64,000 bases of DNA from assembly GCA_043553855.1 (NCBI GenBank), contig CP121336.1:3559249-3623248 (forward strand). Reading direction: 5' to 3'. The position numbers and the translations under genes were made by a program. The notes under the pieces are model-generated. The model ran no database searches. It was not told where the DNA came from and saw only the letters and a program-made list of their open reading frames with translations. The DNA is from Paracoccaceae bacterium. Lineage in GTDB: Bacteria; Pseudomonadota; Alphaproteobacteria; Rhodobacterales; Rhodobacteraceae. Shown in pieces: positions 3,491-20,285 of the stretch. The first letter of the stretch is position 1; each line of letters starts with the position of its first letter.

Positions 3491-4878
3491 AGCTCTGCCC
3501 GAAAGTTGGTGACGGCGTGATCAGGCGGCTTGGTTAAGTTGTTTGATCCCGTCCTTGAATGCAATCCCTTCGATGATCTCGGGCATGCGGTTGGCTCCGT
3601 CCAGTCTCCGCCACTTGGTCTGGGCTGACATCATCAACTTGAACGCCATAGCGAGACCAGTTTTGCGGCTGAGACAGCCTTTGGTTTTGCCAGTGCGGTG
3701 TCGGACCGTGGCGAAGGTGCTTTCGATTGGATTGGTGGTGCGGATGTGCTTCCAGTGTTCGGCTGGGAAGTCATAGAAAGCCAAGAGGACGTCGCGATCT
3801 TTGGTCAGCTTTCCGACAGCCTTATCATATTTCACGCCGTAGGTTGCGACGAAGAAATCAAAGGCCGCCTCGGCATCCACGCGGGTCTCGGCCTGCCAGA
3901 TATCGTGCAAATGACCCTTTGCTTTGGCCTGAACGGACTTGGGCATCGCGTTCAGTACATTGCCGGTTTTGTGGAACCAACAGCGCTGTTCTTTCGTGGC
4001 ACCAAAGACCTCGCGCAATGCATGCCAGAAGCCCAAAGCGCCGTCCCCGATGGCCAGATCAGGCGCGTGGGTCAGTCCGCGCCGCTGGAGATCAAGCAGC
4101 AACTCTCGCCAGCTTTGGGTGCTTTCGCGGTAGCCATCGGCGAGGCCGATGATCTCTTTGCGACCCCACTCGTCCGCCCCGATCAACACCAGAACGCATT
4201 GTTTTTCCCTCAGCCATGCGTGGCCGGAAGTAGACGCCGTCCGCCCAGATGTAGACGAACCGCCGCGTGCTGAGGTCACGGCGCTGCCATCGGTCATACT
4301 CATCCCACCAGTCGGCTTTGAGCCGCGATATGGTTGTGGATGACAAACCCGCAGCGTTCGGCCCGAGCAGCGCCGCGAGTGCCTCGTGAAAGTCGCCGGT
4401 GGAAATGCCTTTGAGATAGAGCCAGGGCAGCAACTCCTCGATGGACTTGGCTTTGCGCAAATAGGGTGGCAGGATCGTTGACGTGAAACGCACCTTCTCA
4501 GCGGCGTCGCCCCGGTCCCGCACGCGCGGTACTTTGACCGGCACCGCGCCGATCCCGGTAATGATCTCGCGTTCAGGCAGGTGACCGTGGCGCACCAGCC
4601 GAGCGCGACCATCATCCGTTTTCTCGGATGTATAGGCCTCCAGCAAAACTGAAAGTTCGGCCTCAACCGCTTGCTCAATCAGACGCTTCGCACCTGATCG
4701 AAGGATGTCCGTCAGTGGATCAGGTGAAAATCCCTGTGGATCGGGCAGCTGGGTAATGATATTTGTCGTCATGTGGCATATCCTTTTCTCAGACGAGAAT
4801 TGCGGCGCGTGAACAACGCCATGATATGCCGCCTCTCAGGGGTCATCACCAACTTTTAGCTATATCTCTATTCATCCG
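3491..4878 (-). mobile_element. IS256-family insertion sequence (type 1), flanked by a 10-bp direct repeat
   Basis: Direct repeat TATTCATCCG at 3481-3490 and 4879-4888. Terminal inverted repeats share AAAGTTGGTGA (3502-3512 against the reverse complement of 4854-4864). A Mutator/IS256-type transposase lies inside. The right end is uncertain by 1-2 nt. Confidence 0.75.
3521..4772 (-). pseudogene. IS256-family transposase, frameshifted
   Basis: Two overlapping ORFs (4092-4772 and 3521-4678) carry the N- and C-terminal halves: ...FVYIWADGVYFRPRMAE / EKQCVLVLIGADEWG...NPIESTF. The frame break is at the GAGGGAAAAAC run (plus-strand CCC at 4207-4209). Deleting one G restores MAEEKQCVLV. Confidence 0.8.
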
Positions 4879-5069
4879 GCGGGGGCCATCTTTGTGATGT
4901 GAGGTCTTGCGTTTAATGTATGCGCAGCTTATGTCCCATCGAGATTTTCGGCTTACACCGGTTGACATGTGGGTTTAGGAGCCCATCCAGGCGTCCTGGG
5001 CGATCTCGCGTTTGGAGATAGGGCAGCGATATAGCCCGGTGATGGGTTTTCACGCTGGAGCGTACGAGC

Positions 5070-5177
5070 TCATCCGGGAGTCCCGGACGAGCTCACGCTT
5101 GAGGTAGTCGCAGCGGCATAGGCCCAAGGCATCAAAGCATCGATGTCTTTTTCGAGATGCCCGTTGGCCAGCTTGGG
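5070..5177 (-). pseudogene. IS66-family TnpC C-terminal remnant
   Basis: Minus-strand translation ...PKLANGHLEKDIDALMPWAYAAAT...* resembles the C-termini of the two IS66 TnpC proteins here (..ANGHPQSRLDDLLPWNF.., ..INRVDDLLPWKT..). No upstream body is present. Confidence 0.35.
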
Positions 5178-5298
5178 GAGAGTGTTATCGTGATGAGGTT
5201 GTATCCGCTGCCTGTGAAGTAAAAAGGTTCGCCGCCAGTTCCGCAAACTGAATGACTGTCGAACTCAATCCAGTCACAATTATTACAATATGCCGAGG

Positions 5299-5881
5299 TC
5301 ACCCCAAGACCCGAAATTTGTCGTGATTGACGACCCTGAAATTATCAGACACCTGATCGCGGAAGGTTTGCCATTCGTTGGGTAGGGTTTCTCGAAAGAA
5401 CCGCAGGACCGCATCCGCGAACTGCTTTTGCGTTGGGTAGTAGTGATTATGAGTGACGTATTGGTGCATGACCGCCCATAATCGTTCAATCGGGTTCAGG
5501 TGGGGGCAATAGGGCGGCAGCTGGATAAGTCGTATGCGGCACTCTGGTCGTTTGAGGAATTCGCGAACGTCTGGGCCCTTATGGTAAGCCGCATTATCCC
5601 AGATGACATAGATGATCCGCGAGAGAGGATTGCGAGCCTCAATCTTGGCGAGAAGCTGCGCTGCACTCACCCCGTCTACGGTGGTCGGCTCGACAAAGGG
5701 CGCGTCAAAATTCTCAAGATTGAGCGCACCATGGATGTTCACGCGCCCGCGCCCTGCGGTGGTTGTCACGGCGGGGTTTGATCCTGCCTTGACCCAGCCG
5801 TAGCTGGGTTTTGTCTGGTATTCAGGATGCACCGCGTCGGCGAAATAGACGGCTTCATCTGCGCCCAATTCGTTCAGCAGC
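5299..5881 (-). pseudogene. IS630-family DDE transposase, 5'-truncated
   Basis: C-terminal catalytic half only (..VIWDNAAYHKG..LPPYCPHLNPIERLW..). The reading frame stays open upstream of the first Met (..LLNELGADEAVYF) and stops abruptly at the IS66 terminus GTAAGCG at 5882. Confidence 0.75.
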
Positions 5882-5941
5882 GTAAGCGGCGGCTGGAGGG
5901 CACCTGGTTTTCAGCTTGACGGCTTGAAGTTCCAGGGCAGC
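5882..5941 (-). mobile_element. 60-bp terminal remnant of an older IS66-family copy
   Basis: GTAAGCGGCGGCTGGAGG...TTGACGGCTTGAAGTTCCAGGGCAGC aligns with the first 60 bp of the adjacent IS66 (GTAAGCGTTAGCTGAAC...TTGACGGCGCAAAGTTCCACGGCAGC). Confidence 0.6.
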
Positions 5942-5970
5942 GTAAGCGTTAGCTGAACAGCACCAGCGGG

Positions 5971-7530
5971 TTAGCTTGACGGCGCAAAGTTCCACGGCAG
6001 CAGATCATCGAGGCGGCTTTGCGGGTGACCGTTGGCGATCGCTGTCAGCGTTGCCTTGAGGTAGGCGAAGGGTTCGACGCCGTTGATCTTGCAGGTCTCG
6101 ATCAGCGAGGCGATGCGGCCCCAGGCGATGCCGCCCTCGTCGTGACCCGCAAAGAGCGCGTTCTTGCGATTTAGGGTGATGGGGCGGATCAGGTTTTCGA
6201 CGCGGTTGTTGTCGATCTCGACGCGCCCATCGGTCAGGAAGGTTTGCAAACCGTCCCAGTGATTGTGGATGTAGGTCAGCTTTTCGCCCAAGCGGGATTT
6301 GGCCGGGATCTTGCGGCGTTGGGCCTGCAGCCAGTCGCCGAAGGCCGTGACCAGCGGGACGCTGCGGGTTTGGCGGGCAGACAGACGCTGGCCGGACGAG
6401 ACGCCACGGATATCGGCTTCAACGGCATAGATCTCGGCGATGCGGCGCAGGCCTTCGGCGGCGATCTCAGAGCTGTCGCGGTCAAAGACTTCCTTCAGCT
6501 TGCGGCGCGCGTGTGCCCAGCAATGGGCCACCCGAATGGGGGCACCGCCCTTGCGGGTCAGTTTGGTCAGCCGGTTGTAGCCCTGGTATCCGTCGATCTG
6601 CAGGATACCGTTAAAGCCTGTGAGGATTGTTTCGGCGTTCTCGCCCGCGCGCCCGGGTGCATAGAAGTAAACCACACCGGGCGGATCTTCACCGCCCCAT
6701 GGCCGGTCATCGCGGGCAAGCGCCCAGAGATAGCCAGTTTTGGTTTTACCGCGACCCGGATCCAGCACCGGGGCCGTGGTTTCGTCCATGAAGAGCTTGT
6801 CGGATCGTTTCAGGTGTTCAGCCAGCCGGTCAACAACGGGCTTGAGGTGGAATGCTGCCTTGCCCACCCAATCGGCCAAGACAGCGTGGTGCAGATCAAG
6901 ACCCGCCCGCGCCAGGATCTGGCTCTGACGATACAATGGCAGGTGATCGGCATATTTGCTGACCAGCACATGGGCGATGCTGGCCTCGGTCGGCAACCCG
7001 CCCATGATCAGGTGCGATGGTGTGGGAGCTTGGGTCACGCCATCGGTGCAGGTCCGGCAAGCGTATTTGGGACGGACGGTGACAATGACGCGCAACTGCG
7101 CCGGCACGATGTCCAACCGCTCGCTACGGTCTTCACCGATCTTGTGCATGACGCCACAGCCGCAAGGGCAGATCAGGCTGTCGGGTTCGACAACCTCTTC
7201 AATGCGCGGCAATGCGGCCGGCAAGTTGCCGATAGTGCGCTTTGGCGCGGGCCTGGTTGCCGTTTTGTCACCTGCCTTGGCAGCCAGATGTTCCTTCTGC
7301 ACCTCGACCTCAGCCAGTGCGATGGACAGATCCTCGAACGCCAGTTGCCGCTCATCCTCGGTCAACTTTTCCGACCGCTTGCCATGCAGGGAATGGTTCA
7401 GCTCGGCGATCAAATGCTGTTGGCGTTGGGTGATATCCGGAAGTGCAGTGATCGTTTCCATCAATGACGTAACCACCGCGCGCTGCGCGGCAGGGATGGT
7501 GGAAAGGTCAATGGCGGGCATCTCGATCAT
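5971..7530 (-). CDS. tnpC: IS66-family transposase TnpC
   Basis: 519-aa ORF with the IS66 zinc-finger region (CPCGCG...CRTC) and the DDE region (..ADHLPLYRQSQI..FMDETTAPVL..HCWAHARRK..). Confidence 0.9.
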   Translation of the reverse strand: MIEMPAIDLSTIPAAQRAVVTSLMETITALPDITQRQQHLIAELNHSLHGKRSEKLTEDERQLAFEDLSIALAEVEVQKEHLAAKAGDKTATRPAPKRTIGNLPAALPRIEEVVEPDSLICPCGCGVMHKIGEDRSERLDIVPAQLRVIVTVRPKYACRTCTDGVTQAPTPSHLIMGGLPTEASIAHVLVSKYADHLPLYRQSQILARAGLDLHHAVLADWVGKAAFHLKPVVDRLAEHLKRSDKLFMDETTAPVLDPGRGKTKTGYLWALARDDRPWGGEDPPGVVYFYAPGRAGENAETILTGFNGILQIDGYQGYNRLTKLTRKGGAPIRVAHCWAHARRKLKEVFDRDSSEIAAEGLRRIAEIYAVEADIRGVSSGQRLSARQTRSVPLVTAFGDWLQAQRRKIPAKSRLGEKLTYIHNHWDGLQTFLTDGRVEIDNNRVENLIRPITLNRKNALFAGHDEGGIAWGRIASLIETCKINGVEPFAYLKATLTAIANGHPQSRLDDLLPWNFAPSS

Positions 7531-7584
7531 GACCCGAGACTACGATAAAACCACAGTAAAAACACGCAAAAGACAGCGCTTGAT

Positions 7585-7937
7585 TCATTCTGCCACAGCA
7601 GGTGGGCGCGTCTCCAAGGCCTTGACCTTGCGCCAGTCGAGACCGGCAAACAGGGCCTCAAACTGGGCGTGGTTCAGCGCCATCATCCCGTCCTTGATCG
7701 CAGGCCAGGTGAAGGTCGTATCTTCCAACCGCTTGTAAGCCATCACCAATCCGGTGCCGTCCCAATACAAAAGCTTCAGCCGATCCGCCCTGCGCGAGCG
7801 GAACACAAACACCGTGCCGGTGAACGGATCCTTGCGCAGCACCGACGACATGATCGCTGCAGACCGTCATGACCTTTCCTGAAGTCCACAGGCTGCGTCG
7901 AGACCAGAACCCGCACGCGGTTTGACGGGAACATCAT
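7585..7937 (-). pseudogene. tnpB: IS66 accessory protein TnpB, frameshifted
   Basis: The N-terminal part MMFPSNRVRVLVSTQPVDFRKGHDGL is in one frame and ..MSSVLRKDPFTGTVFVFRSRRADRLKLLYWDG.. is in another. One nt appears to be missing near 7858-7862 (GGTCTGCAGCG where GGTCTGGCAGCG would be expected). Confidence 0.8.
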
Positions 7938-8063
7938 GGCCGTGACCTGTGAATCGGCATGCAAAAGTGACCCACTTGGGTGGGTTATGATCATCTAAAA
8001 CTGACCCACCTGCATTGTTAACGTCCGTGCGCTTTGGGCACGGAGGAAGAGCAGGTGTTACTG

Positions 8064-9566
8064 ATGGAAACGGCAATGAAGATCCGTGGGTGGATCTTGG
8101 GGGATGGGCGCAGCATCCATTCTGTGGCGCGCGAGACGGGGATTTCGCGAACGACGATCAAAAAGTATCTGAAGGACCCGGAGCAACCGCGGTATCGGAG
8201 ACGGCAACCGCGTGTTGGGTCCAAGCTGAACGCGCAGTTCGAGGCGCGTCTGCGGGAACTTTTCAATCATGATCTGGCCCTTCGGCGGCGTGATCGGCGC
8301 ACAGCGAAGAAGCTATATGAAGAGCTTGTCGCGGAGGGCTACACGGGCTCCTATTCACCAGTTCAGCGGTTTGTCAGTGAGCTCAAGAAGTCATCGGGAA
8401 CCGACGGAACTGATGCATTCATCCCGCTCTATTTCGCGCCTGGCGATGCGCTTCAGTTCGACTGGAGCGAGGAATATGTCCTGTTAGGCGGTATCCAGCA
8501 CAAGGTTCACGTCGCCCATTTCCGCCTGTGCCACAGCCGCAAGCCTTTCGTCGTGGCCTATATGAACGAGAAGCAGGAGATGGTGCTCGATGCCTTTGTG
8601 CGGGCACTGACGTTCTTCGGCGGCGTCCCGCGTCGGGTGATCATCGACAACCCCAAGACCATGGTGACCTATGTCTCGCGATCGAAGGACCGGATCTTTC
8701 ACCCACGCTTTCTGGCCTTGATGAACCATTACGTCATCGAACCTGTCGCCTGCACGCCCGCTTCAGGATGGGAGAAGGGGCAGGTCGAGAACCAGGTGCA
8801 GTTTCTGCGTGGCGAGCTGTTCACTCCCAGGCTGGCCTTTGACGATCTGGCGGCGCTGAATGCCTGGCTTCTGCTGCGCTGCGAGGAACTGGCTGAACGC
8901 CGCCATACGGATCAACAGCATCGCACAATCGCCGAAGTCTTTGAGGATGAGAAGATCGAGCTGCGCCCGCTGGGCCGCCCTTTCGACGGTTATGTCGAAA
9001 AAACTCTGCGGGTCAGATCCACCTGCCTGGTGCAGTATAACAGCAATCGCTACAGCGTGCCGTGCGAACATGCGGGGCATCACGTCTCGTTGCGCGCCTA
9101 TGCTGATCGGCTTTTCATGATCGCAAACGACGAAATTATCGCTGAACATAAGCGGCGCTTTACACGCAATATCAGTTACTTCGAGCCCTGGCACTATGTG
9201 CCGCTGCTCGATCGCAAGCCCGGTGCGCTGCGTGATGGCGCACCTTTTGTCGGTTGGGAATTGCCCAAATCGATGGAGCAGATCAAGGATCACTACATGC
9301 GCGAGAAAGGTGGCGACCGGGAGTTTGTCGACCTGCTGCTGCTGGCACTTGAGCATGGCATCGACGTGGTCGAGATGGCCTGCGATCTGGCCGTCGAACA
9401 GCGCACCCTGCGCTTGCCGGCGATCATCAATCTGGTCAATCAGCTGCTGGAGCCGACAATCGCGCCACTGGCGGAGACACATGCCTATCCACAGCTGACC
9501 CTGCGCCCAGAGGCCGATTGCAAGCGATATGAAGCGCTGTGTGCTGCGGGGAGGGTTGCGGCATGA
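8064..9566 (+). CDS. istA: IS21-family transposase IstA
   Basis: N-terminal HTH ([20 protein letters not shown]) and a DDE core (..[15 protein letters not shown]..). The track ORF starts at TTG 8034; ATG 8064 is preferred, with GGAGGAAG upstream. The start is uncertain. Confidence 0.85.
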
Positions 9567-10294
9567 ACGCCCTCATCGACCAACTCGCTGCCCTCAGGCT
9601 TCATGGGATGGCAGCTTGCGCTCAGGATTTGCTTGCCGCGCGCACGCCACCCAGCCTGACAACAGCGCTGAAGACCTTGATCGAAGCCGAGACCAAAGAG
9701 CGGCGGGTGCGGTCCATCCAGTATCAGATGCGCATCGCGAAATTCCCCCACCACAAGGACTTCGCTACCTTCGATTACAGCGCAGCGACCGTCACGAAAG
9801 GGCAGATCGACCCGTTTTGCTCAGGCCAGTTCACCGATGACGCGCACAACATCATCCTCGTCGGTGGAACCGGCACCGGCAAGACGCACATTTCCATCGC
9901 GCTCGGGACCAATCTCGTCAATCGGGGTAAGCGGGTTCGCTTCTATAATGCCGTCGATCTGATCAATGCCCTCATTGCAGAGCAGGCCGAGGGCAACACC
10001 GGGAAGATCATCAAGCAACTGACCGCCCTGGATTGCGTCATCATCGACGAACTCGGCTATATCCCGTTCCCGAAATCCGGCGGGTCGCTGCTGTTTCATC
10101 TGATTAGCAAGCTGTATGAAACCACCAGTGTCATCATCACGACGAACCTTGAATTCGGCGAATGGGTGTCGGTGTTCGGCGATGCAAAGATGACCACCGC
10201 GCTGCTCGATCGTGTCACGCACCATTGCAGCATCATCGAGACCGGCAACACATCCTACCGCTTCGCCCAAAGCAAATCTCGAACCAAATCCTGA
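9563..10294 (+). CDS. istB: IS21-family helper ATPase IstB
   Basis: ATG 9563 overlaps the istA stop (ATGA). Walker [10 protein letters not shown] and Walker B VIIDELGY. Confidence 0.9.
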
Positions 10295-10407
10295 AACAGA
10301 AAAAGCAAAGCCCACAGACGAGCCTGCTATATGGGGGCCGCTCGCCTGTGGGCTTTGCTCTCCCAGAGGTGGGTCATTTTTAAATGATCACACTGGGTCA
10401 GTTATGA

Positions 10408-10758
10408 ATGCAGATTGACAGTCATCAGACGAATGGTTGCTTTGTCGAAGAAATCGCATCGGCGTTAAAACGGTCGCTCGGCGACAGTCGGGCGGGTGTG
10501 AAGACTGTGGCGGCCTGGACGGGTGCCAACGAGAAGACGGTGAAGAACTGGTTCTCGGGCACCTACGGCCCGAGTGGCGCGCACCTGATTGCGCTGTCGC
10601 GGCACTCTGATGAGGTGCTGGGTGCGTTCCTGGCCATGGCAGGGCGCGAGGATCTGATGGTGGCCATCAAGCTCGCGGCTGCCGAAGACGCGATTTCGGA
10701 TCTGCTTGATGCCGTGCGTCAGCTTGGTGGGGACGACCCAGGCGGCAGGGTCAGCTGA
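10408..10758 (+). CDS. Helix-turn-helix domain protein; its 5' end lies inside the IS21 terminus (truncated or hybrid start)
   Basis: 116-aa ORF with an HTH-like segment (VKTVAAWTGANEKTVKNWFSG). The only in-frame start codon upstream of the HTH lies within the IS21 right inverted repeat (10408), so the native N-terminus is probably lost. Confidence 0.4.
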   Translation: MQIDSHQTNGCFVEEIASALKRSLGDSRAGVKTVAAWTGANEKTVKNWFSGTYGPSGAHLIALSRHSDEVLGAFLAMAGREDLMVAIKLAAAEDAISDLLDAVRQLGGDDPGGRVS

Positions 10759-11484
10759 TCAGTTGAGCGAACTGAAAGCTATTGTCCCTCAATGGCGCGC
10801 AGGATTTCGAAGCGATCCCGTACGGTGGAAACCTGCACAGGAGAGAGTTGGGCGCGTGAGCCATTCCCTCCGCCATTATCCCCATTGCGAACCAGTGACA
10901 CCGCCCTGACGGGCACGGATTTTTCCGTGTTATCAAAGGGGTTTACGGGAAATGACCGAACCTCATAGACGCGCCGCCTAGCCGAAGCTGGGCTCAGAAT
11001 GGCCCTCAGTCTCAGTTTGGGCGAACCTAGGCCATTCCGGCTCGGCACGTTTTCCTATTAGATTTCAATCCTCTGCCGCCGAACCCCGCCAAAACCCAAT
11101 CGCGCGATCCGAATGATATGAATGGCAACATAGAAAGAACACACGGTAGGCGCGTTGCTTGAGATGCCAGCGTAAAGTTGCGGATTGCTTGGGTGGTTTC
11201 GCATCCCAATCCCCCGTCGAAACCCGTGATGAAGAACCGTCTGGCACCGCTGGCGATTCAGGGACCCCGGATCGCCTCAATCTGGTGCAGAGGCCATACG
11301 GCGGCCTCGCAAAGGCGCGTCCTTCGAGCAGGATGGACATGTGCCGATGTCATCTTGCGAGCGGAGTGCGAGCTACCGTTGCGAGAGACCGAGCAATGAT
11401 CGGCTGGCCAAAGGTGTAGGTCACACTTGTTCTGTGTGCTTTGTTGGTTATTTTGAACACAGGAAAGATAACATTAGCAGCGCG

Positions 11485-11739
11485 ATGTCCCGAACGACAA
11501 CGATGACCGTCCGCCTTGGTGGGGCTTTGAGCGAATTCGTATCCGCCAATGTGGGCGATGACGGGTCTTACGAGAACGTCAGCGAATACATCTGTGACCT
11601 AATCCGCCGGGACAAGGAGAGAGCGGAGCAGGAAGCATTCAGCAGGTTGAAGGCCGAGTTGACGCATGCCTTCTCCGCGCCGGAGGACTCCTATCAGTCG
11701 CTGACGGCGGCCGAGGTAATCGCGCGGAATCGGGCCTGA
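11485..11739 (+). CDS. parD: ParD/CopG-type ribbon-helix-helix antitoxin
   Basis: 84-aa product MSRTTTMTVRLGGALSEFVSANVGDDGSYENVSEYICDLIRRDKERAEQEAF.. matches the ParD-family pattern (beta-strand, then SEYIRDLIRRD helix). The longer track ORF from 11341 has an implausible leader. Confidence 0.6.
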   Translation: MSRTTTMTVRLGGALSEFVSANVGDDGSYENVSEYICDLIRRDKERAEQEAFSRLKAELTHAFSAPEDSYQSLTAAEVIARNRA

Positions 11740-11814
11740 CCCGGTGCCCGCTGGACGCGTCGCGGTTTGATGCCGCTCCTTTGATAGCATTTATTGCAGC
11801 AAAGGAGACAAACT

Positions 11815-12090
11815 ATGGGACTGAAGCGAACGGACGAGTTTCGCGCTGATGCGGTGCGGATCGCACTGACCAGCGGGCTGACACGCAAACAGGTGGCATC
11901 AGATTTGGGCGTTGGCCTTTCGACGCTGAACAAGTGGGTGACGGCGCATCGTGACACCGATGTTGTGTCGGACAAGGATCTGGACCTCGCCCGTGAAAAC
12001 GAGCGACTTCGACGGGAGAACCGTATTCTCAAGGAGGAGAGGGATATTCTAAAAAAGGCCACAGCCTTCTTCGCGAGCCAAAAGCCATGA
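11815..12090 (+). CDS. IS3-family transposase OrfA (HTH + leucine zipper)
   Basis: AAGGAG lies 7 nt upstream of ATG 11815. HTH (LTRKQVASDLGVGLSTLNKWV) and heptad Leu/Arg repeats (ENERLRRENRILKEERDILKKA). Confidence 0.85.
   Translation: MGLKRTDEFRADAVRIALTSGLTRKQVASDLGVGLSTLNKWVTAHRDTDVVSDKDLDLARENERLRRENRILKEERDILKKATAFFASQKP
12060..12066 (+). promoter_or_regulatory. Programmed -1 ribosomal frameshift heptamer A AAA AAG (IS3 OrfAB fusion)
   Basis: AAAAAAG is in the orfA zero frame, 22 nt before the orfA stop. orfB is in the -1 frame relative to orfA. Confidence 0.6.
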
Positions 12091-12944
12091 GGTTCCGGTT
12101 CATTGAAGAGCATGGCTGCGAATTCCCAATCAACCGCCTTTGCCAGGTTCTGGACGTCAGCGCTCGCGGACTGCGTGCCTATCGCAGCCGTCCAGCCAGT
12201 CAAAGACAGCGAACCGATCTCGTGGTTCTGGCTCACATCAAAGAGCAATCCCGTCTCAGCTTGGGCAGCTATGGTCGGCCACGGATAACGGAAGAACTGA
12301 AAGAGCTTGGCTTAAACGTCGGTCATCGCCGTGTCGGTCGGCTGATGCGTGAGAATGGCATACGGGTTGAAAGATCCAAGAAATACAAGGTCACGACTGA
12401 CAGCAACCACGCCTTCAACATCGCGCCGAACCTGTTGAACCGGGACTTCCGCGCAGATCGCCCGAACCAGAAATGGGCAGGTGACATCAGCTATGTCTGG
12501 ACGCGTGAGGGATGGTTGTATCTGGCAGTGATCCTGGACCTGCATTCCCGGCGCGTCATCGGTTGGGCGGTCAGCAACAGGATGAAGCGTGATCTCGCAA
12601 TCCGGGCATTGAAGATGGCCGTGGCACTGCGGCAACCGCCCAAAGGATGCATCCATCACACGGATCGCGGCAGCCAATACTGTTCTCACGATTATCAAAA
12701 GCTCCTGCGCCAGCATGGGTTACAGGTATCGATGAGCGGTAAAGGCAATTGTTATGACAACGCGGCGGTCGAAACCTTCTTCAAAACAATCAAGGCTGAG
12801 CTAATCTGGCGCCGGTCTTGGCTAACGCGACGGGCAGCAGAGATGGCAATCTTCAACTACATAAACGGCTTCTACAATCCGCGCCGCCGTCACTCAGCAC
12901 TGGGCTGGAAAAGCCCTGTCGCGTTCGAACGGAAAGTGGCTTAA
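12087..12944 (+). CDS. IS3-family transposase OrfB (DDE integrase core)
   Basis: ..NQKWAGDISYVWT..HTDRGSQYCS..CYDNAAVETFFKTIK.. gives the DD(35)E rve-type motifs. Confidence 0.9.
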   Translation: MRFRFIEEHGCEFPINRLCQVLDVSARGLRAYRSRPASQRQRTDLVVLAHIKEQSRLSLGSYGRPRITEELKELGLNVGHRRVGRLMRENGIRVERSKKYKVTTDSNHAFNIAPNLLNRDFRADRPNQKWAGDISYVWTREGWLYLAVILDLHSRRVIGWAVSNRMKRDLAIRALKMAVALRQPPKGCIHHTDRGSQYCSHDYQKLLRQHGLQVSMSGKGNCYDNAAVETFFKTIKAELIWRRSWLTRRAAEMAIFNYINGFYNPRRRHSALGWKSPVAFERKVA

Positions 12945-12965
12945 CGAGCACTTGGGGCGGCACGA

Positions 12966-13116
12966 ATACGTGACAGGTCCATTATCCCCGCCATCGTCGG
13001 CGGTACTGGTGGTTGGAACCAGATACGGGTTTCTTGAGCGGTGCGATGGATCGCCAAGACGCGACCCTTCGGGGTCTGAAACCCGACGACGTAGTCTGTT
13101 GCTGCCTTGGCAGCCA
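12966..13116 (-). pseudogene. 3' fragment of a split hypothetical ORF (continues from 18198-18258)
   Basis: Minus-strand frame is open across the whole segment: (M)AAKAATDYVVGFQTPKGRVLAIHRTAQETRIWFQPPVPPTMAGIMDLSRI. It joins in frame to the fragment on the other side of IS256 copy A. Confidence 0.3.
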
Positions 13117-14081
13117 GGGAGTGTCATGAAGTCTGTGTATCTGGTCCGGCCCATGCGGGTTTCAGATACGGTCACGCATTGAAGCGTTCGTCGAACATGA
13201 TAGCGAATTGATTGCGGGCGGCAAACCACTCTCGGACATTCCGTCCTCCTTTCTTGAAGTTGCGGATGGCCAGGTAGATCAGCTTCGTCGCGGCCTCCTC
13301 GGTTGGGAATGAACCGCGCGTCTTGATCGATTTCCGGATTACCCGGTTCAGGCTTTCGATGGCATTGGTGGTGTAGATGATCTTGCGGATCGCGGGATCG
13401 AAAGCGAAGAACGGGATTACCTCCTGCCATGCTCTCCGCCATGCCGGGGCAATCGAGGCGTATTTCTTGGCCCATTTTTCCTCAAAGGCGTCCAGCTCAG
13501 CGGCAGCCTGTTCGGCCGTCGGGGCACCGTATATCAGGCGAAGGTCGGCGGCCACCGCCTTGCGATCCTTCCAGGCGCAGAAGTTCAGAGAATGGCGCAC
13601 CAGATGCACGATGCAGGTCTGGACCGCGGCGTCCGGGAAAGCGGCTGTGATGGCCTCGGGAAAGCCCTTCAGCCCATCTACGACCGCGATCAGCACGTCC
13701 TGAACCCCGCGGTTCTTCAGTTCGTTCATCACAGACAGCCAGAACTTGGCACCTTCGTTGTCGGCAATCCAGAGGCCGAGAACCTCGCGGACGCCGTCTC
13801 TGCTGACGCCCAAGGCCACGTAGACGGCCTTGTTCTTGACCATGCGGCTGTCAGCGTCGCGGATTTTGACCCGGAGCGCGTCGAATATCACGATGGGATA
13901 CATCCGCTCCAGCGCCCGGGATTGCCATTCGCGAACCTCGTCCAACACAGCGTCGGTAACCCGGCTGATCAGGTCTGGAGAAACCTGTAGGCCGTAGACG
14001 TCCTCAAGGTGGGCGCGGATGTCACGGACCGTCAAGCCAGCGGCATAGAGACCGATGATTTTGTCATCTATTCCGTCGATC
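13117..14081 (-). mobile_element. IS256-family element (type 2), copy A, 3' segment
   Basis: Sequence is identical in register to intact copy B from its left terminus GGGAGTGTCATGAAG. It is interrupted at 14081/14082 by IS66 copy 2. Confidence 0.9.
13172..14081 (-). pseudogene. IS256-family transposase of copy A, C-terminal part
   Basis: From ..IDGIDDKIIGLYAAGL.. to the stop, the translation is identical to the intact 404-aa transposase of copy B. The upstream part of the track ORF (to 14485) is read-through into IS66. Confidence 0.9.
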
Positions 14082-14488
14082 GTAAGCGTCCGGCCTTCCT
14101 GCTCTGACGCGCCATAGAGTGTGTTGATAAGTGTCCACCATTGATAGTGGACATCTTGAGGGCAGATATGGCGGGTAAGAAGGGTCAGAAGAAGCGGTTC
14201 TGGTCGGATGAGGAGAAGGTGTCGATCTGCGCGCAAACATGTGCGCCGGGTGTTTCGGTCGCGCAAGTTGCCCGACGTTACGCAATGAACACTAATCTGA
14301 TCCACAAATGGCTGCGTGATCCCAAGTTTGCGCCGGATCCGGAGATCGTTGAAGAACAGGTTGCTGCGACGCCATGCTTTCTCCCGGTCGAGATTGTGGA
14401 CCGGCCTCAGACCAAAGACACGGCCCCAACAACTGACGCCAAGTCCGCACAAAGCACGATTGAGATCGATATCGCAGGCGGTCACCGT

Positions 14489-15821
14489 GGGAGTGTCATG
14501 AAGTCTGTGTATCTGGTCCGGCCCATGCGGGTTTCAGATACGGTCACGCATTGAAGCGTTCGTCGAACATGATAGCGAATTGATTGCGGGCGGCAAACCA
14601 CTCTCGGACATTCCGTCCTCCTTTCTTGAAGTTGCGGATGGCCAGGTAGATCAGCTTCGTCGCGGCCTCCTCGGTTGGGAATGAACCGCGCGTCTTGATC
14701 GATTTCCGGATTACCCGGTTCAGGCTTTCGATGGCATTGGTGGTGTAGATGATCTTGCGGATCGCGGGATCGAAAGCGAAGAACGGGATTACCTCCTGCC
14801 ATGCTCTCCGCCATGCCGGGGCAATCGAGGCGTATTTCTTGGCCCATTTTTCCTCAAAGGCGTCCAGCTCAGCGGCAGCCTGTTCGGCCGTCGGGGCACC
14901 GTATATCAGGCGAAGGTCGGCGGCCACCGCCTTGCGATCCTTCCAGGCGCAGAAGTTCAGAGAATGGCGCACCAGATGCACGATGCAGGTCTGGACCGCG
15001 GCGTCCGGGAAAGCGGCTGTGATGGCCTCGGGAAAGCCCTTCAGCCCATCTACGACCGCGATCAGCACGTCCTGAACCCCGCGGTTCTTCAGTTCGTTCA
15101 TCACAGACAGCCAGAACTTGGCACCTTCGTTGTCGGCAATCCAGAGGCCGAGAACCTCGCGGACGCCGTCTCTGCTGACGCCCAAGGCCACGTAGACGGC
15201 CTTGTTCTTGACCATGCGGCTGTCAGCGTCGCGGATTTTGACCCGGAGCGCGTCGAATATCACGATGGGATACATCCGCTCCAGCGCCCGGGATTGCCAT
15301 TCGCGAACCTCGTCCAACACAGCGTCGGTAACCCGGCTGATCAGGTCTGGAGAAACCTGTAGGCCGTAGACGTCCTCAAGGTGGGCGCGGATGTCACGGA
15401 CCGTCAAGCCAGCGGCATAGAGACCGATGATTTTGTCATCTATTCCGTCGATCCGGGTCTGGCCTTTCTTGACCAGTGCAGGCTCGAAACTGCCGTCCCG
15501 GTCACGCGGCACGGCGATTGGCACCTCGCCGTCCTGACCCTTCAGCCGCTTACTGGCTGTGCCGTTGCGCCGGTTGGACTGACCAAGAGGAGCATCCTTG
15601 CCTTCTTCATAACCAAGATGCGCGGTCAGCTCAGCTCCCAGCATGCGTTCCATCAACTTGATCCTGAGCTCTTTCATCAGCCCGGTATCGCCAAGCAGAT
15701 CTTCAGGCCGTTCGCAGCCCTTCAAAAGTTCGTCCAGTAATTCCTTGGAAATCGTCATCGTCCTTGCTCCTCTCAGGAAGCATGGACCAAAGCGCAGTTA
15801 CACAGAAGATCGGACACTCTC
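14489..15821 (-). mobile_element. IS256-family element (type 2), copy B, intact (1333 bp)
   Basis: Imperfect inverted repeats: GGGAGTGTCATGAAGTCTGTGTATCTG against the reverse complement GAGAGTGTCCGATCTTCTGTGTAACTG. The 8-bp TSD GTCACCGT lies at 14481-14488 and 15822-15829. Confidence 0.92.
14544..15758 (-). CDS. IS256-family (Mutator-like) transposase, intact
   Basis: 404-aa ORF with IS256 hallmarks (..VIFDALRVKIRD..LIAVVDGLKGF..YTTNAIESLN..). Confidence 0.9.
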   Translation of the reverse strand: MTISKELLDELLKGCERPEDLLGDTGLMKELRIKLMERMLGAELTAHLGYEEGKDAPLGQSNRRNGTASKRLKGQDGEVPIAVPRDRDGSFEPALVKKGQTRIDGIDDKIIGLYAAGLTVRDIRAHLEDVYGLQVSPDLISRVTDAVLDEVREWQSRALERMYPIVIFDALRVKIRDADSRMVKNKAVYVALGVSRDGVREVLGLWIADNEGAKFWLSVMNELKNRGVQDVLIAVVDGLKGFPEAITAAFPDAAVQTCIVHLVRHSLNFCAWKDRKAVAADLRLIYGAPTAEQAAAELDAFEEKWAKKYASIAPAWRRAWQEVIPFFAFDPAIRKIIYTTNAIESLNRVIRKSIKTRGSFPTEEAATKLIYLAIRNFKKGGRNVREWFAARNQFAIMFDERFNA

Positions 15822-15891
15822 GTCACCGTCTAAGGATCATTGGCGGTTATGATCCCGAAGCCTTGGCCCATCTGATCCGGGGCCTTTCTGC

Positions 15892-16239
15892 ATGATCCCT
15901 GTTCCGGCGAACACACGGGTCTGGCTTGCGGCTGGCGTGACCGACATGCGGCGTGGGTTCACGACGCTGGCAGCCCAAGCGGAGCAAACACTGAAGCAAG
16001 ATCCGTTCACAGGGCATCTGTTCGTCTTCCGTGGACGTCGCGGTGACCTGATCAAGATCATCTGGTGGGATGGACAAGGTGCGTGCCTGTTCAGCAAGCG
16101 ACTTGAGAAGGGTCGGTTTGTCTGGCCATCGGCCAAAGAAGGCAAGATCGCCCTGACCGCTGCGCAGTTGGCGATGCTGTTGGAAGGTATCGACTGGCGT
16201 CTGCCACAACGCAGTTGGACACCACTCAAGGCGGGATAA
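15892..16239 (+). CDS. tnpB: IS66 accessory protein TnpB
   Basis: [23 protein letters not shown]...[27 protein letters not shown].. is a typical IS66 Orf2. Confidence 0.9.
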
Positions 16240-16299
16240 ATCGGCAATACACGCACATGCAGGATTCCCGTTGGACCCTTGTTTTGCTATGTTTTGACC

Positions 16300-17799
16300 A
16301 TGCTGAACGTCGACAAAACCCTGCCGAAAGACCCTGATGAACTGCGACAGTTCACAGCACTTTTGCTGGCCGAAGTGAGGTCACAGGCTGTGCTGATTGA
16401 GAAGTTGCGCCATCAATTGGCCGGTCAACGCCATCACCGGTTCGGATCGTCATCAGAAAGCATTGAACAACTGCAACTGGCCTTGGAAACGAGCGAGATC
16501 GCGGTTGCCAAGATGACCGCGAAGCTGCGCCTTCCCGATGAGGAGCCGAAGGATAAACCCAAACGCCGCCCGATCCCCGATCACATCCCGCGCATGGAAG
16601 TCGAATTGACCACGGGCGATGATGATTGCGCCCATTGCAGTGGTGGATTGCGTCGTCTCGGAGAAGATGTGACCGAAGAGTTGGAATACGTTCCCGGCCG
16701 GTTCATCGTAAACCGCATCGTGCGACCGCGCTTTGCCTGTTCGGGCTGTGAAGCGTTCACACAAGCCGCATTACCATCACGCCCAATCGAACGTGGACGT
16801 CCAGGTCCCGGCCTGCTGGCGCATGTACTGGTCAACAAATACGCGGACCACCTGCCGCTCTATCGCCAAAGCGGAATCTTTGAGCGCGACGGGATCGACA
16901 TTGATCGCTCCACGCTGGCCGATTGGGTTGGCAAGTCCACAGCACTTTTGGAACCACTTGCTGATGCGATCGGACGGCATGTGCTCGCGGGACAGGCCAT
17001 CTTCGCAGACGACACGCCCGTGAAGATGCTGGCCCCCGGCACCGGTAAAACCGCGACGGCGCGGTTATGGGCATATGGCCGAGATGAACGGCCCTGGGGC
17101 AGTGATGTCCCGCCTGCCAGTTGGTATCAGTTCTCGCCTGATCGCAAAGGGCAGCATCCCAAAGACCATCTCGCAAAGTATGAAGGCTGGATGCATGCAG
17201 ACGGCTACGCCGGGTTCGAGGACCTCTATCGTTCCGGCGACATCCGAGAGGTTGCCTGCATGGCGCATGTCAGGCGCAAGTTCGTCGATATCCACCGCGC
17301 TCAAGGCTCGGCCATCGCGGACGAGGCCATCCAGCGCATCGCGCAACTCTACGCAGTCGAGAAGGAGGCACGCGGGTCGCCGCCGGATAAACGCATCGAA
17401 CTCCGACAAGCGAAGGCAAAGCTGGTTTTTGATGACCTGGAAGTCTGGCTGCACGCCCAACTGCCCAGTATCTCTGGCAAATCGCCGCTAGCAGGTGCAA
17501 TCCGCTATGCCCTGACGCGCATGGCGCGGCTGCGGCCCTACCTCGATCACGGCATCTTGGAACTGGACAACAACACCGCCGAACGGGCCATGCGGGCCGT
17601 TGCTATTGGTCGCAAAAACTACCTGTTCGTTGGATCACAAACCGGCGGCAAGGCCGCCGCTATCGCCTACACCCTGATCGAAACTGCCAAACTGAACGGT
17701 ATCGATCCGCAGGCATGGTTGGCCGATACGCTCGCTCGCATTCCAGACTACAAGATCAACCGTGTTGATGATCTGCTGCCTTGGAAAACCACACCATAG
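16300..17799 (+). CDS. tnpC: IS66-family transposase TnpC
   Basis: Homologous to the copy-1 TnpC (..NKYADHLPLYRQS..FADDTPVKML..ACMAHVRRKF..LLPWK). ATG 16300 is preferred to the TTG at 16279. Confidence 0.9.
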   Translation: MLNVDKTLPKDPDELRQFTALLLAEVRSQAVLIEKLRHQLAGQRHHRFGSSSESIEQLQLALETSEIAVAKMTAKLRLPDEEPKDKPKRRPIPDHIPRMEVELTTGDDDCAHCSGGLRRLGEDVTEELEYVPGRFIVNRIVRPRFACSGCEAFTQAALPSRPIERGRPGPGLLAHVLVNKYADHLPLYRQSGIFERDGIDIDRSTLADWVGKSTALLEPLADAIGRHVLAGQAIFADDTPVKMLAPGTGKTATARLWAYGRDERPWGSDVPPASWYQFSPDRKGQHPKDHLAKYEGWMHADGYAGFEDLYRSGDIREVACMAHVRRKFVDIHRAQGSAIADEAIQRIAQLYAVEKEARGSPPDKRIELRQAKAKLVFDDLEVWLHAQLPSISGKSPLAGAIRYALTRMARLRPYLDHGILELDNNTAERAMRAVAIGRKNYLFVGSQTGGKAAAIAYTLIETAKLNGIDPQAWLADTLARIPDYKINRVDDLLPWKTTP

Positions 17800-17821
17800 G
17801 GCAGTCAGACCGGACGCTTAC

Positions 17822-18134
17822 CGTCGATCCGGGTCTGGCCTTTCTTGACCAGTGCAGGCTCGAAACTGCCGTCCCGGTCACGCGGCACGGCGATTGGCAC
17901 CTCGCCGTCCTGACCCTTCAGCCGCTTACTGGCTGTGCCGTTGCGCCGGTTGGACTGACCAAGAGGAGCATCCTTGCCTTCTTCATAACCAAGATGCGCG
18001 GTCAGCTCGGCTCCCAGCATGCGTTCCATCAACTTGATCCTGAGCTCTTTCATCAGCCCGGTATCGCCAAGCAGATCTTCAGGCCGTTCGCAGCCCTTCA
18101 AAAGTTCGTCCAGTAATTCCTTGGAAATCGTCAT
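17822..18134 (-). pseudogene. IS256-family transposase of copy A, N-terminal part
   Basis: MTISKELLDELLKG...KKGQTRIDG is identical to residues 1-105 of the copy-B transposase. There is one synonymous nt difference (G at 18009 against A at 15633). Confidence 0.9.
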
Positions 18135-18197
18135 CGTCCTTGCTCCTCTCAGGAAGCATGGACCAAAGCGCAGTTACACAGAAGATCGGACACTCTC
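17822..18197 (-). mobile_element. IS256-family element (type 2), copy A, 5' segment
   Basis: Resumes exactly after the IS66 TSD and ends at ..GATCGGACACTCTC (18197), as in copy B. The two segments minus the 8-bp duplication sum to 1333 bp, which equals copy B. Confidence 0.9.
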
Positions 18198-18258
18198 TGG
18201 CTGGCTTGCCATACCGCGTGAAAAGGAATTGTTCGGCATCACTTGGAGGCAGGGTCAT
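18198..18258 (-). pseudogene. 5' fragment of a split hypothetical ORF (continues at 13116)
   Basis: ATG at 18258 lies 81 nt downstream of the stop of the 414-aa gene on the same strand. The translation MTLPPSDAEQFLFTRYGKPA runs up to the IS256-A boundary. Confidence 0.3.
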
Positions 18259-18339: not shown

Positions 18340-19584
18340 TCAGCCTTTGCGTGCTTCGCCAGCAGCGTTGTACTCGTCATGTGCTTTGTCCCAGTTCTGT
18401 CCGGGGAAGGCGCGTCTGACGGCCTCAAGAAACTGAGGGTCCTGTAAGGTTTCGAAGGTGACGTCTTTGAAATCGACGTCCAAATCCATTTTTTTGATTA
18501 GGTCATCTGCCTTCGGAAAGGCCTTGTCGAGTTCGTGCGTCAGCCAAGCTTTTACATCTGATCCAAACAAGCCAACGGCAGCATCGGGCGGGTTTTGTTT
18601 GGCGAGAGGTAGATAATATTCAACGACAGCATCTCTTGACCCATCCAGCTGTACTTGAATGTCAGTCTTTACCCGCTTCTGGTACTCTTTCAGTTCCTCT
18701 CTCAGACTTGCAATTCTCTCTTCAAACTTTGGTTTTGCGGCTTTGAGGAGCGCACGACCAAATTTCTTTCCGAGGGATGGTGTGAAATCCTTTCGGAGCT
18801 TCGCGACTTTGTCATTGAGAGGTTTGGACGATATAGAGCTGTTTTTGGCAATCAGGTCGAAAGACGACTTCAGCCGTCCATCCAGTTCCTGCCCACCACC
18901 CAAAGCTTGAATTTCGGCCGGAATTGCTACGCGTTTCTTATCGATGGACGCATTCCGGAGCTCGACTTCTACATATTGAAGAAATGTATTGTAGACGCGA
19001 ACTTTGCGCGCAACATCGAACTTCGTAAGGGGGACTTCTTGGATCGCCTTGTCAATCTTTTCGATTGTCTCTGACGGAACTGCAGTAGGCGCATTTTCCA
19101 CTACGATGCTTTCAAGGTGCTGTCGCTCTTCGTCTGATTTTGCCATGACAAGAGCGACGGCCTTAGCGGAAGGGGAAAGCCTCGCCATGGCTTCTTTCGC
19201 CTGTTGGGGCGCAAGACGCATTGCGTTCGTGCCTTGATCGTCATGGTTCTCGGCTTCGAGCAACAGCGCAGTGGGCGTGAAGACGAAGCCTTCATCATCA
19301 ACGACCAGAAGGCCCATCCGCAGGCTGGGTGACGACTGTGTCGCAATCCCTGCGCCCTGTAGTTTCTTTATCGCCTTCAGGTCGCCGTAACCCATTCGGA
19401 AGACGCGCTCATCGAAATCCACACAGACGGTGATCAGGTCCGAACCGATACGACTTGCGACTCCGACCAAAGCATCTGCAACCGGGGTGTGCATTCCGGG
19501 GGCGGCAAAACACACAGATGCTTCCGCATTGGAGATCAGCACGGCCATTTCGTCCGACGACAGTGTAGAGAAGTAGGAACTCAT
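18340..19584 (-). CDS. Hypothetical 414-aa protein: N-terminal PLD/Nuc-like fold without the HxK dyad, plus a Lys/Glu-rich alpha-helical C-terminal half
   Basis: Long ORF in an AT-richer block. Residues 12-110 follow the Nuc/PLD pattern (..AEASVCFAAPGMHTPVADALV..ITVCVDFDE..LQGAGI..SLRMGLLVVDDEGFVFTPTA..), but R-x-G sits where H-x-K is expected. I recognise no family for the C-terminal half. Confidence 0.7.
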   Translation of the reverse strand: MSSYFSTLSSDEMAVLISNAEASVCFAAPGMHTPVADALVGVASRIGSDLITVCVDFDERVFRMGYGDLKAIKKLQGAGIATQSSPSLRMGLLVVDDEGFVFTPTALLLEAENHDDQGTNAMRLAPQQAKEAMARLSPSAKAVALVMAKSDEERQHLESIVVENAPTAVPSETIEKIDKAIQEVPLTKFDVARKVRVYNTFLQYVEVELRNASIDKKRVAIPAEIQALGGGQELDGRLKSSFDLIAKNSSISSKPLNDKVAKLRKDFTPSLGKKFGRALLKAAKPKFEERIASLREELKEYQKRVKTDIQVQLDGSRDAVVEYYLPLAKQNPPDAAVGLFGSDVKAWLTHELDKAFPKADDLIKKMDLDVDFKDVTFETLQDPQFLEAVRRAFPGQNWDKAHDEYNAAGEARKG

Positions 19585-19773
19585 GCTGCTTCTTCTCGAT
19601 CCCTTTCCCGGTCCTTCATTACGCGATGCCAGTTTGGACGATGCGCACGATAACTATGCGCACCCATTTTCTGTGCCTGCTTCACGCTACTTCGGAGTCT
19701 CTGCGTGTTCAATCGAAATGCTTCGTGTCATTGCCTTTTCGGATGCATCGTTTCGAATGGGGTGGAGGCTCGC

Positions 19774-19974
19774 TCAGACCTCACTGGGTGGATGGTCAGG
19801 AAAGCTCTGAACGTCGCGTTCAAATGCCTCGACATCGGACAGTCTGTACACGACCCGGCCGCCGATCTTCAGGTATCGCGGACCTTCCTTTGCCCAACGC
19901 CAGCGCTTGAGTGTTCGGTGGCTGATCTTCCAGCGGGCCGCCAGTTCTTTTTGATTCACACATACTTCGCTCAT
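19774..19974 (-). CDS. AlpA/excisionase-family (MerR-like HTH_17) DNA-binding protein
   Basis: 66-aa product: ..VNQKELAARWKISHRTLKRWRWAKEGPRYLKIGGRVVYRLSDVEAFE.. AAGGAG lies 7 nt upstream of the ATG. Confidence 0.75.
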   Translation of the reverse strand: MSEVCVNQKELAARWKISHRTLKRWRWAKEGPRYLKIGGRVVYRLSDVEAFERDVQSFPDHPPSEV

Positions 19975-20285
19975 TTTCGTCTCCTTTTGCGCAACTTATT
20001 TCGGTCGCAAGAGAACGAATGCGTGAGAAGAAAACCTATTCAAGTCGGTAGGTTGCGTGCTCGGAGGCTATGTTCGAAACAGGCGGACAAGGCGTGAATT
20101 GGCGCAAGCCCTAAAAGCCGCGTCGGAACGTTCGGGACGGAGCGGCCCCCATCGGCATGGGGTCGGACACTTTTCTCAAGATTTCAGGGATTTTCGTGGC
20201 GTCTAGATAAGATCCGAACTGCCAAAACAGCCGATTTAGTGTACGAGTCATTCCCTCCGCCACAAACCATTCGTGAACCCGAGAC

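Follow-up and report, generated by a model that had tools for sequence, protein, structure and literature searches.

Within a 64,000-nucleotide stretch of a Paracoccaceae bacterium (GenBank assembly GCA_043553855.1, contig CP121336.1, positions 3,559,249 to 3,623,248; hereafter the window), an intact minus-strand open reading frame (ORF) encodes a 414-amino-acid protein that belongs to an unannotated family of ~420 amino acids. Genes of this family repeatedly land at the tail of methylation-based systems, moving between five kinds of them. With moderate confidence, we propose that the family consists of autonomous accessory genes of methylation-based immunity, which putatively provide an auxiliary or back-up layer. 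An original prediction, made by a model from the window sequence alone, had read the gene as part of a cargo module and candidate undescribed system together with an upstream helix-turn-helix (HTH) gene. What it missed is the signature of the family, namely a location within, or as the 3'-terminal gene of, type I restriction-modification (R-M) loci, SNF2 helicase plus methyltransferase loci, phospholipase D (PLD)-SNF2 helicase plus type ISP methyltransferase loci, Hma and BREX.

The 414-amino-acid protein had no match in Pfam, NCBIfam, PADLOC or PHROGs and no sequence relative in the PDB (phmmer), in line with the original prediction, which could not assign it to any described system. PADLOC-DB v2.0.0, which includes PDC and HEC candidates, returned no family at E ≤ 1, DrmC models included. 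A word-indexed search identified at least 376 relatives of ~418 amino acids, every one annotated as hypothetical and none with a precomputed Pfam domain. At 50% identity, an exhaustive HMMER search with the family profile yielded 1,737 representatives; E-values were below 1e-30 for 578, and almost all have a length of 400-440 amino acids. Conservation extends over the full length (mean column identity of 66% across 50 sequences with ~50% identity to the query), and the protein has no transmembrane segment and no internal repeat. The family is carried by 122 of 185,579 species-representative genomes, thinly spread over Alpha-, Beta- and Gammaproteobacteria, Planctomycetota, Verrucomicrobiota, Desulfobacterota, Acidobacteriota and others. 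It was found in none of 50,697 phage genomes and on two of 72,556 plasmids. The nearest genome copy, at 96% identity, is that of Primorskyibacter sedentarius (locus L013), so that the window derives from a member of the Roseobacter group. A literature search found no paper that names the family or its member WP_039048211. Three members, P0019, P0022 (+245 amino acids) and P0063 (+200 amino acids), have N-terminal extensions in which no Pfam domain was found; these could be real fusions or gene-calling read-through from the upstream gene.

We retrieved 80 genome loci of the family, clustered the neighbouring genes and labelled the clusters by Pfam and PADLOC. All neighbours were relabelled with local hidden Markov models made from the labelled clusters, and 76 loci were counted. 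Type I R-M, SNF2 helicase plus methylase, PLD-SNF2 helicase plus type ISP methylase or Hma genes were present at most six genes away in 53 of the 76 loci, which bears out the defence-type context that had been read from the window. Such genes were located upstream only in 39 loci and downstream only in six (sign test, p = 5e-7). The immediate upstream gene was co-directional with the focal gene in 57 of 72 cases. With alignment-corrected starts, an overlap with the focal gene, mostly of 4 nt, is seen for 14 of these 57 genes, and the distance to it is no more than 30 nt for another 13. Translation of the upstream and focal genes is thus often coupled, and the overlapped gene is often an HsdS or a methyltransferase gene.

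Recurrent neighbours include the type I genes HsdR, HsdM and HsdS, as well as a DISARM-like set of an SNF2 helicase (best PADLOC match DpdE, then DrmD), a type IIG/DrmMI-like methyltransferase and a helicase-MZB(DUF1998) protein. PLD-SNF2 helicases with type ISP or Eco57I-type methyltransferases, HmaB/HmaC and AAA_15 ATPases also recur, and other neighbours, likewise of defence type, are GmrSD, Mrr, YhcG/DUF1016, DUF4268, RadC, AlbA_2-Schlafen, UvrD, dynamin-like proteins and BrxL. Among the type I loci, the gene order is hsdR-hsdM-x-hsdS-focal gene in L007, where the overlap with hsdS is 4 nt, hsdRMS-PLDc_2-focal gene in L003, and hsdR-hsdM-NucS-like-hsdS-x-x-focal gene-AIPR in L009. In two loci only (L041 and L086), the focal gene follows the helicase-MZB(DUF1998), SNF2 helicase and DrmMI-like methyltransferase genes. 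On an Acinetobacter towneri plasmid it is found inside BREX-1, between pglX and pglZ and overlapping both, where RefSeq lists a 'hypothetical protein'; this copy is WP_039048211.1. Four IMG/VR matches are likewise located behind Hma or PLD-SNF2 clusters.

In a neighbour-joining tree of the focal proteins, the partner types are interleaved. Near-identical focal proteins have a type I system beside one of them and an SNF2 helicase plus methyltransferase, PLD-SNF2 or Hma system beside another. The gene is thus an autonomous module rather than a co-evolving subunit of one system. A fixed partner gene was also sought by clustering the neighbours, and none was found: NucS_C-like genes occur in two or three loci, an HTH_17 gene in L013 only, and a 493-amino-acid gene, described below, in L099 and L100 only.

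Several further genes were observed in these loci. A protein of ~355 amino acids with a faint NucS_C/PD-(D/E)xK signature (L003, 11256-12323; L005, 3193-4263; L009, 5589-6668) recurs in or beside type I operons that have the focal gene, and its L003 and L005 copies are 73% identical. Proteins of cluster c6 (L027, L030, L055 and L083; ~530-620 amino acids, no Pfam domain) always follow a DpdE/DrmD-like SNF2 helicase. The genes of cluster c37 (L052 and L065; ~437 amino acids, no Pfam domain) have the focal gene on one side, overlapping it by 4 nt, and a type ISP-like methyltransferase on the other. In the metagenomic genome of L005 (4452-10788), the focal gene, a metallo-β-lactamase-fold gene and the NucS-like gene directly adjoin gyrB-recF-dnaN-dnaA; this cluster is a defence islet at the replication origin region.

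The N-terminal domain is predicted to have the fold of the PLD superfamily without its catalytic residues. An AlphaFold2 model based on the family alignment had a mean predicted local distance difference test (pLDDT) score of 83.6, and ~90 for residues 1-105. The top 50 Foldseek matches in the PDB all belonged to the PLD superfamily (probability 0.9-1.0; modest E of ~1e-2; template modelling (TM) scores of 0.45-0.52 against single-domain PLDs). The top matches were Streptomyces PLD, phosphatidylserine synthase, Zucchini, NucT, PLD3, vaccinia F13 and the two best-known PLD folds without catalysis, TrmBL2 and FAM83A, and poxvirus F13-type PLDs were matched again in the viral library BFVD. The original prediction had threaded this domain onto a PLD nuclease pattern and proposed that R-x-G replaces the catalytic H-x-K. 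The predicted structure agrees with that proposal, the motif strings it quoted are all present in the translation, and R-x-G is invariant across the family. The further proposal that the domain binds rather than hydrolyses is a reasonable, putative reading. We counted residue conservation in 240 full-length members. R89 is kept in 238 of them, R63 in 237, G67 in 239, and D96, N120 and G65 in every one; no member has His at position 89 or Lys at position 91. As the replacement is invariant, the loss of the catalytic pair is ancient and not a recent decay. The Arg/Asp/Asn pocket of R63, R89, D96 and N120 that takes its place is under strict selection. The N-terminal domain is acidic family-wide, with a median isoelectric point of 4.9, and the C-terminal domain is neutral to basic. 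Pfam PLDc and PLDc_2 gave no match at E ≤ 1, and hhalign of the family N-terminal domain against genuine PLD domains of neighbour genes gave a Prob of 0.1%, a weak negative given the small template profile.

Residues 126-414, modelled alone, had a pLDDT of 78.6 and contain a small sheet and a 50-residue helix at 281-330. The original prediction had recognised no motif in this Lys/Glu-rich, helical part. Its helical character agrees with the models, and Foldseek found no credible relative of the domain in the PDB (best E 0.6, probability < 0.1; SipD, MukF and KpsE appeared as noise). We considered a degenerate second PLD lobe in this part and rejected it, as hhalign of the N-terminal against the C-terminal domain gave a Prob of 0.6%. 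In BFVD, the full model had weak matches over 220-250 columns (E 0.02-0.2) to uncharacterised phage proteins of ~270-340 amino acids, including A0A6J5MDD2 and A0A6J7WV52 (DUF3150). For the DUF3150 lead, no function literature was found, and a Pfam search with the 414-amino-acid protein gave no match at E ≤ 1. Should the BFVD matches fall on the C-terminal domain, a relative of this domain may exist in phages.

The family partially resembles several known systems. DrmC of DISARM is likewise a PLD-fold protein at the end of a helicase plus methyltransferase operon, a position comparable to that of the focal gene in L041 and L086; the other loci carry type I, Hma, PLD-SNF2 or BREX genes or none of these. 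DrmC, however, is a small single-domain protein that keeps the catalytic H-x-K-x4-D (HKD) motif, whereas the focal family has R-x-G, an extra 290-residue C-terminal region, associations with at least five kinds of system and no PADLOC match. Like the focal gene, PrrC/RloC of type I systems and PARIS (AriAB) are mobile, non-core genes that are embedded in or appended to methylation-based systems. They differ in having sensor ATPase and nuclease domains, neither of which is found in the focal family, and no sequence similarity to it was found. The triggers of PrrC/RloC and PARIS are proven, being Stp and Ocr, respectively. The concept of auxiliary or back-up effectors that are embedded in such loci and act when the core is inhibited, among them PARIS as an Ocr guard, comes from a recent survey of BREX and BREX-related loci, which does not list the focal family (PMC12839542). 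The TrmB/TrmBL2 C-terminal domain and the FAM83 DUF1669 domain, which are among the top structural matches (5bpi and 4urj), are precedents for PLD scaffolds that have lost catalysis and bind ligands or partners. These belong to archaeal transcription and chromatin proteins and to eukaryotic kinase scaffolds, and no sequence, domain-context or genomic tie connects them to the family. Nuc/NucT, BfiI/NgoFVII-type nucleases and PLD-SNF2 helicases share with it the fold, the order of secondary structure and the motif positions (strand-D, loop, x-H/R-x-K/G-x4-D, hairpin), and genuine HKD examples adjoin the focal gene. The catalytic His and Lys are nevertheless missing in all 240 focal members, and there is no profile similarity. 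Finally, DUF4268, YhcG/DUF1016, RadC and AlbA_2-Schlafen proteins occupy the same positions in the same loci and are known chiefly by their R-M association. Unlike the focal family, which is in no library searched, they have Pfam models, mostly with a nuclease or peptidase fold.

The pseudo-PLD domain is presumably unable to form the phospho-histidine intermediate of PLD enzymes. If the family does act in immunity, this domain probably senses a partner protein or an anionic ligand of a specific kind, and is neither an enzyme nor a generic DNA binder. Oligomerisation or output might then fall to the basic, helical C-terminal domain. The protein might guard a methyltransferase or restriction complex and report interference with it, as PrrC and PARIS do for type I R-M and BREX. 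A more specific version, tentative and rather doubtful, is that of an immune sensor. Its Arg/Asp/Asn pocket would detect a signal shared by the attacks on every methylation-based system, and its novel C-terminal domain would respond. Candidate signals would be an anti-restriction DNA mimic, the loss of S-adenosylmethionine or a product of a stalled restriction complex.

Several points weigh against the proposed accessory role. No effector domain is recognisable, and the link to 'defence' is one of guilt by association. About 30% of the loci, the window included, have no R-M-type neighbour, so that the gene does not necessarily depend on such systems. Genes in the 76 loci were called crudely, as greedy longest ORFs, and the enrichment rests on the polarity test and general knowledge of R-M rarity. 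The PLD link appears at the fold level only, at the E-values and TM scores given above, and not by Pfam or hhalign. The acidic N-terminal domain argues against simple DNA binding and names no ligand.

In the window, both minus-strand ORFs of the original prediction were recovered at its coordinates, separated by a spacer of 189 nt (190 nt in that prediction), and the strong AAGGAG ribosome-binding site of the HTH gene is found 7 nt 5' of its ATG. The 414-amino-acid ORF is full length and keeps all family-invariant residues. The block of both genes has a G+C content of 52.5%, against 60.3% for the window, and ranks in the lowest 0.8 percentile of all 1635-nt windows; the lowest-G+C 1635-nt stretch of the whole 64 kb begins at 18451, within the 414-amino-acid ORF. 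At third codon positions, the G+C content of the block is 55%, and that of adjoining core or housekeeping genes 70-77%. Earlier hand counts of single sequence lines were close: two lines of the block, put at 45-47%, have 45.0% and 48.3%, the latter above the given range, and the line at 24601 has 61.7%, as counted. The view that the block is foreign, low-G+C cargo is supported. Promoter or terminator motifs in the spacer and the surroundings of the block did not exceed chance, no Rfam RNAs and no att sites were found around it, and the window contains no tRNA genes.

The HTH gene was correctly recognised as excisionase/AlpA-type, matching Pfam HTH_17, a MerR-like winged-helix domain (PF12728; E 2.3e-9, above the gathering score), and phrog_66, 'excisionase and transcriptional regulator' (E 1.2e-7). 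No ORF for an integrase was noticed next to it. Its proposed union with the 414-amino-acid gene into a module did not hold, as an HTH_17 gene adjoins the focal gene only in the P. sedentarius copy and is missing beside the other 76 or so loci. It is a lineage-specific neighbour and not a partner of the family. In blastn, window positions 20263-18448 align with P. sedentarius at 95.5% identity; this shared stretch, of only 1.8 kb, runs from the HTH gene across the spacer into the ORF, most of which it covers. Past the shared stretch, the P. sedentarius flank consists of ordinary genes, which makes 20263 a probable island border. Homology of the P. sedentarius gene ends at codon ~380, 95 nt from the contig end (L013, 11137-11232), which suggests an interruption of this copy. 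Its probable cause is a repeated element at which the assembly broke off.

The metagenomic contig L099 contains a copy that is >90% identical to that of the window, in an intact arrangement. There, the focal gene follows genes of an integrative conjugative element (ICE), encoding HTH_17, DUF2840, S26 peptidase, SLT, DUF3363 relaxase, TraG and ribbon-helix-helix (RHH) proteins. The RHH gene occupies the position that HTH_17 has in the window, and a related HTH_17 gene sits in the ICE conjugation module. On the 3' side of the focal gene are 81 nt, a 493-amino-acid gene (11327-12808), and then BrxR, SNF2 helicase and DUF1156 methyltransferase genes. Synteny with the window comprises 19721-18198 and 13111-12982, at 92-93% identity. 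The best explanation is that the window gene was probably once cargo of an alphaproteobacterial ICE. R-M-type genes were detected nowhere in the 64-kb window, and with no methylation-based system there, the window copy is an orphan.

The synteny with L099 also confirmed that the gene downstream of the focal gene in the window is disrupted by insertion sequence (IS) elements, as the original prediction had stated. About 62 codons of this 493-amino-acid gene survive, and the other ~430 are not in the window. The spacing to the 414-amino-acid gene is the same 81 nt in L099, L100 and the window, and the gene is in no focal locus besides L099 and L100. It is a separate, lineage-specific gene and not the conserved partner that had been supposed. 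Its own family has 714 matches, mostly alphaproteobacterial and without a Pfam domain, in which the C-terminal ~370 residues are conserved and the N-terminal ~120 are swapped, giving variants of 383, 493 and 557-562 amino acids. UniRef names some of these variants EVE, SIR2-like or HNH. An HNH motif noticed by eye in the C-terminus was dropped, as Pfam, phmmer against the PDB and BLASTP against an HNH_2 protein did not confirm it. Taken by itself, the 493-amino-acid gene resembles a modular defence gene of the nuclease type, so far undescribed.

These data also bear on other explanations of the family. The protein could be a modulator of host restriction that binds the methyltransferase or specificity complex and tunes restriction against methylation, for alleviation or for safe establishment after transfer. 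Such a modulator would fit the overlaps of 4 nt with the genes for HsdS, type IIG/Eco57I-type methyltransferase and PglX, the lack of a detected effector domain, an acidic N-terminal domain that recalls protein- or DNA-mimic surfaces, and an ICE that the gene shares with an Hma-type system. We nevertheless hold it to be a possible but doubtful role, because one nearly identical protein serves mechanistically different systems, and ~30% of copies, that of the window too, lack such a system in their vicinity. The C-proteins, which are known to control R-M expression, are, moreover, small HTH proteins encoded upstream and do not have 420 amino acids or a place at the operon end. Alternatively, the protein could be an active nuclease or phosphodiesterase whose non-canonical site is on the PLD scaffold or in the C-terminal part, and thus a stand-alone, type IV-like complement to the neighbouring R-M system. 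Nucleases of the PLD fold are frequent among restriction modules (PLDc_2 and RE_NgoFVII in the neighbouring helicases, DrmC in DISARM), the type IV enzymes GmrSD and Mrr hold similar positions, and the polar cluster D56/R63/R89/D96/N120 is strictly invariant. All characterised PLD-superfamily enzymes use a His nucleophile (Gottlin et al. 1998, cited in PMC12839542), however, which none of the 240 members has. Since the C-terminal domain matches no nuclease fold and PADLOC, with its DrmC models, gave nothing at E ≤ 1, an enzyme seems unlikely to us.

Two further explanations are both very improbable. One is a gene for ICE maintenance or transfer, or for anti-restriction, with no role in host immunity. 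The gene stands right behind traG and the RHH gene of the ICE in L099, its window copy is low in G+C and lies beside the HTH_17 gene and many IS elements, and the acidic N-terminal domain would suit such a role. Just two of the 72,556 plasmids carry the family, however, one of them inside BREX, no phage does, and most copies are on chromosomes, in operons with host R-M genes, where a co-transcribed anti-restriction gene would be self-defeating. The other is a two- or three-gene system of the AlpA-like HTH gene, the 414-amino-acid gene and the split downstream ORF, which the comparative data largely refute. Although the HTH and 414-amino-acid genes form one 1.8-kb block common to P. sedentarius, and the 414- and 493-amino-acid genes are adjacent at constant spacing in L099, L100 and the window, HTH_17 stands beside no other family member and is replaced by RHH in L099. 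The 493-amino-acid gene, in turn, belongs to a larger, independent alphaproteobacterial family and is in no other focal locus.

The remaining features of the window around the gene are mostly IS elements (Table 1), which make up nearly all of the 3.5-18.2 kb region; positions 3500-13000 hold just two small non-IS ORFs. Copies A and B of the IS256-family element are 99.7-100% identical, so the three-level nested insertions are recent. Synteny with L099 shows that copy A simply inserted into the 493-amino-acid gene, near codon 20. The flanks of copy A, which lack a target duplication, had been considered as evidence of a deletion; this was rejected on the same synteny, and the deletion is at the IS3 junction. 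Toxin-antitoxin debris, proposed in the original prediction, was not confirmed by Pfam. No toxin gene follows the ORF at 11341-11739, behind which the IS3 element begins at 11794.

Table 1. Features of the window in and around the 414-amino-acid gene (positions count from the first nucleotide of the window).
Feature	Position	Strand	Basis or remark
414-amino-acid ORF, ATG start, intact	18340..19584	-	ORF call; member of unannotated ~420-amino-acid family
Residues 1-125, predicted PLD-fold domain without catalytic residues	19210..19584	-	AlphaFold2 and Foldseek
R89-M-G91-L-L-V-V-D96, at canonical H-x-K-x4-D position	19297..19320	-	Translation
D56-F-D-E-R-V-F-R63-M-G65-Y-G67, second invariant patch of N-terminal domain	19384..19419	-	Alignment and translation
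Residues 126-414 and stop, predicted helical linker and alpha/beta domain	18340..19209	-	AlphaFold2 models
Spacer between 66- and 414-amino-acid ORFs, 189 nt	19585..19773	-	Last ~137 nt common to L099 (synteny from 19721)
66-amino-acid HTH_17 (AlpA/excisionase-type) gene	19774..19974	-	Pfam, PHROG
Upstream region common to P. sedentarius	19975..20263	-	blastn
First 20 codons of 493-amino-acid gene, 81 nt past 414-amino-acid stop	18199..18258	-	Synteny and tblastn with L099/L100
Codons ~20-62 of 493-amino-acid gene	12983..13111	-	Synteny; homology ends at IS3 junction (12982)
IS256-family copy A, split by IS66	13117..18197	-	
IS66 element inside copy A	~14082-17820		tnpA 14141-14554, tnpB 15892-16239, tnpC 16279-17799
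IS256 copy B inside IS66	14489-15821		8-bp duplication GTCACCGT
IS3-family orfA/orfB, bounding deletion of rest of 493-amino-acid gene	11794..12944	+	
ORF, by eye ParD-type RHH antitoxin (…MTVRLGGALSEFV…SEYICDLIRRDKER…)	11341-11739	+	Pfam: none at E ≤ 0.01
116-amino-acid ORF	10408-10758	+	No family match
IS21 istA/istB	8034-10294		
IS66	5974-7530		
IS630-type DDE_3	5302-5868		
Transposase_mut	3524-4678		

R-M, BREX, DISARM and Hma systems are the commonest bacterial barriers to phages and plasmids, and their back-up under phage inhibition is actively studied. That accessory genes ride on R-M and BREX loci was known already. New is a family that is in no library or paper searched and that combines a pseudoenzyme domain with a structurally novel domain. 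The window copy itself is less significant, being an orphan in a decayed mobile element, and the evidence on function is associative. As an unnamed family of ~1,700 clusters, however, it offers a concrete and cheaply testable candidate for a new auxiliary defence layer, with an unusually distinct genomic signature. If this is true, it would be a case of a bacterial PLD pseudoenzyme used in immunity, and if the sensor reading also holds, the protein would serve type I, type ISP-like, DISARM-like, Hma and BREX systems alike as a universal plug-in guard.

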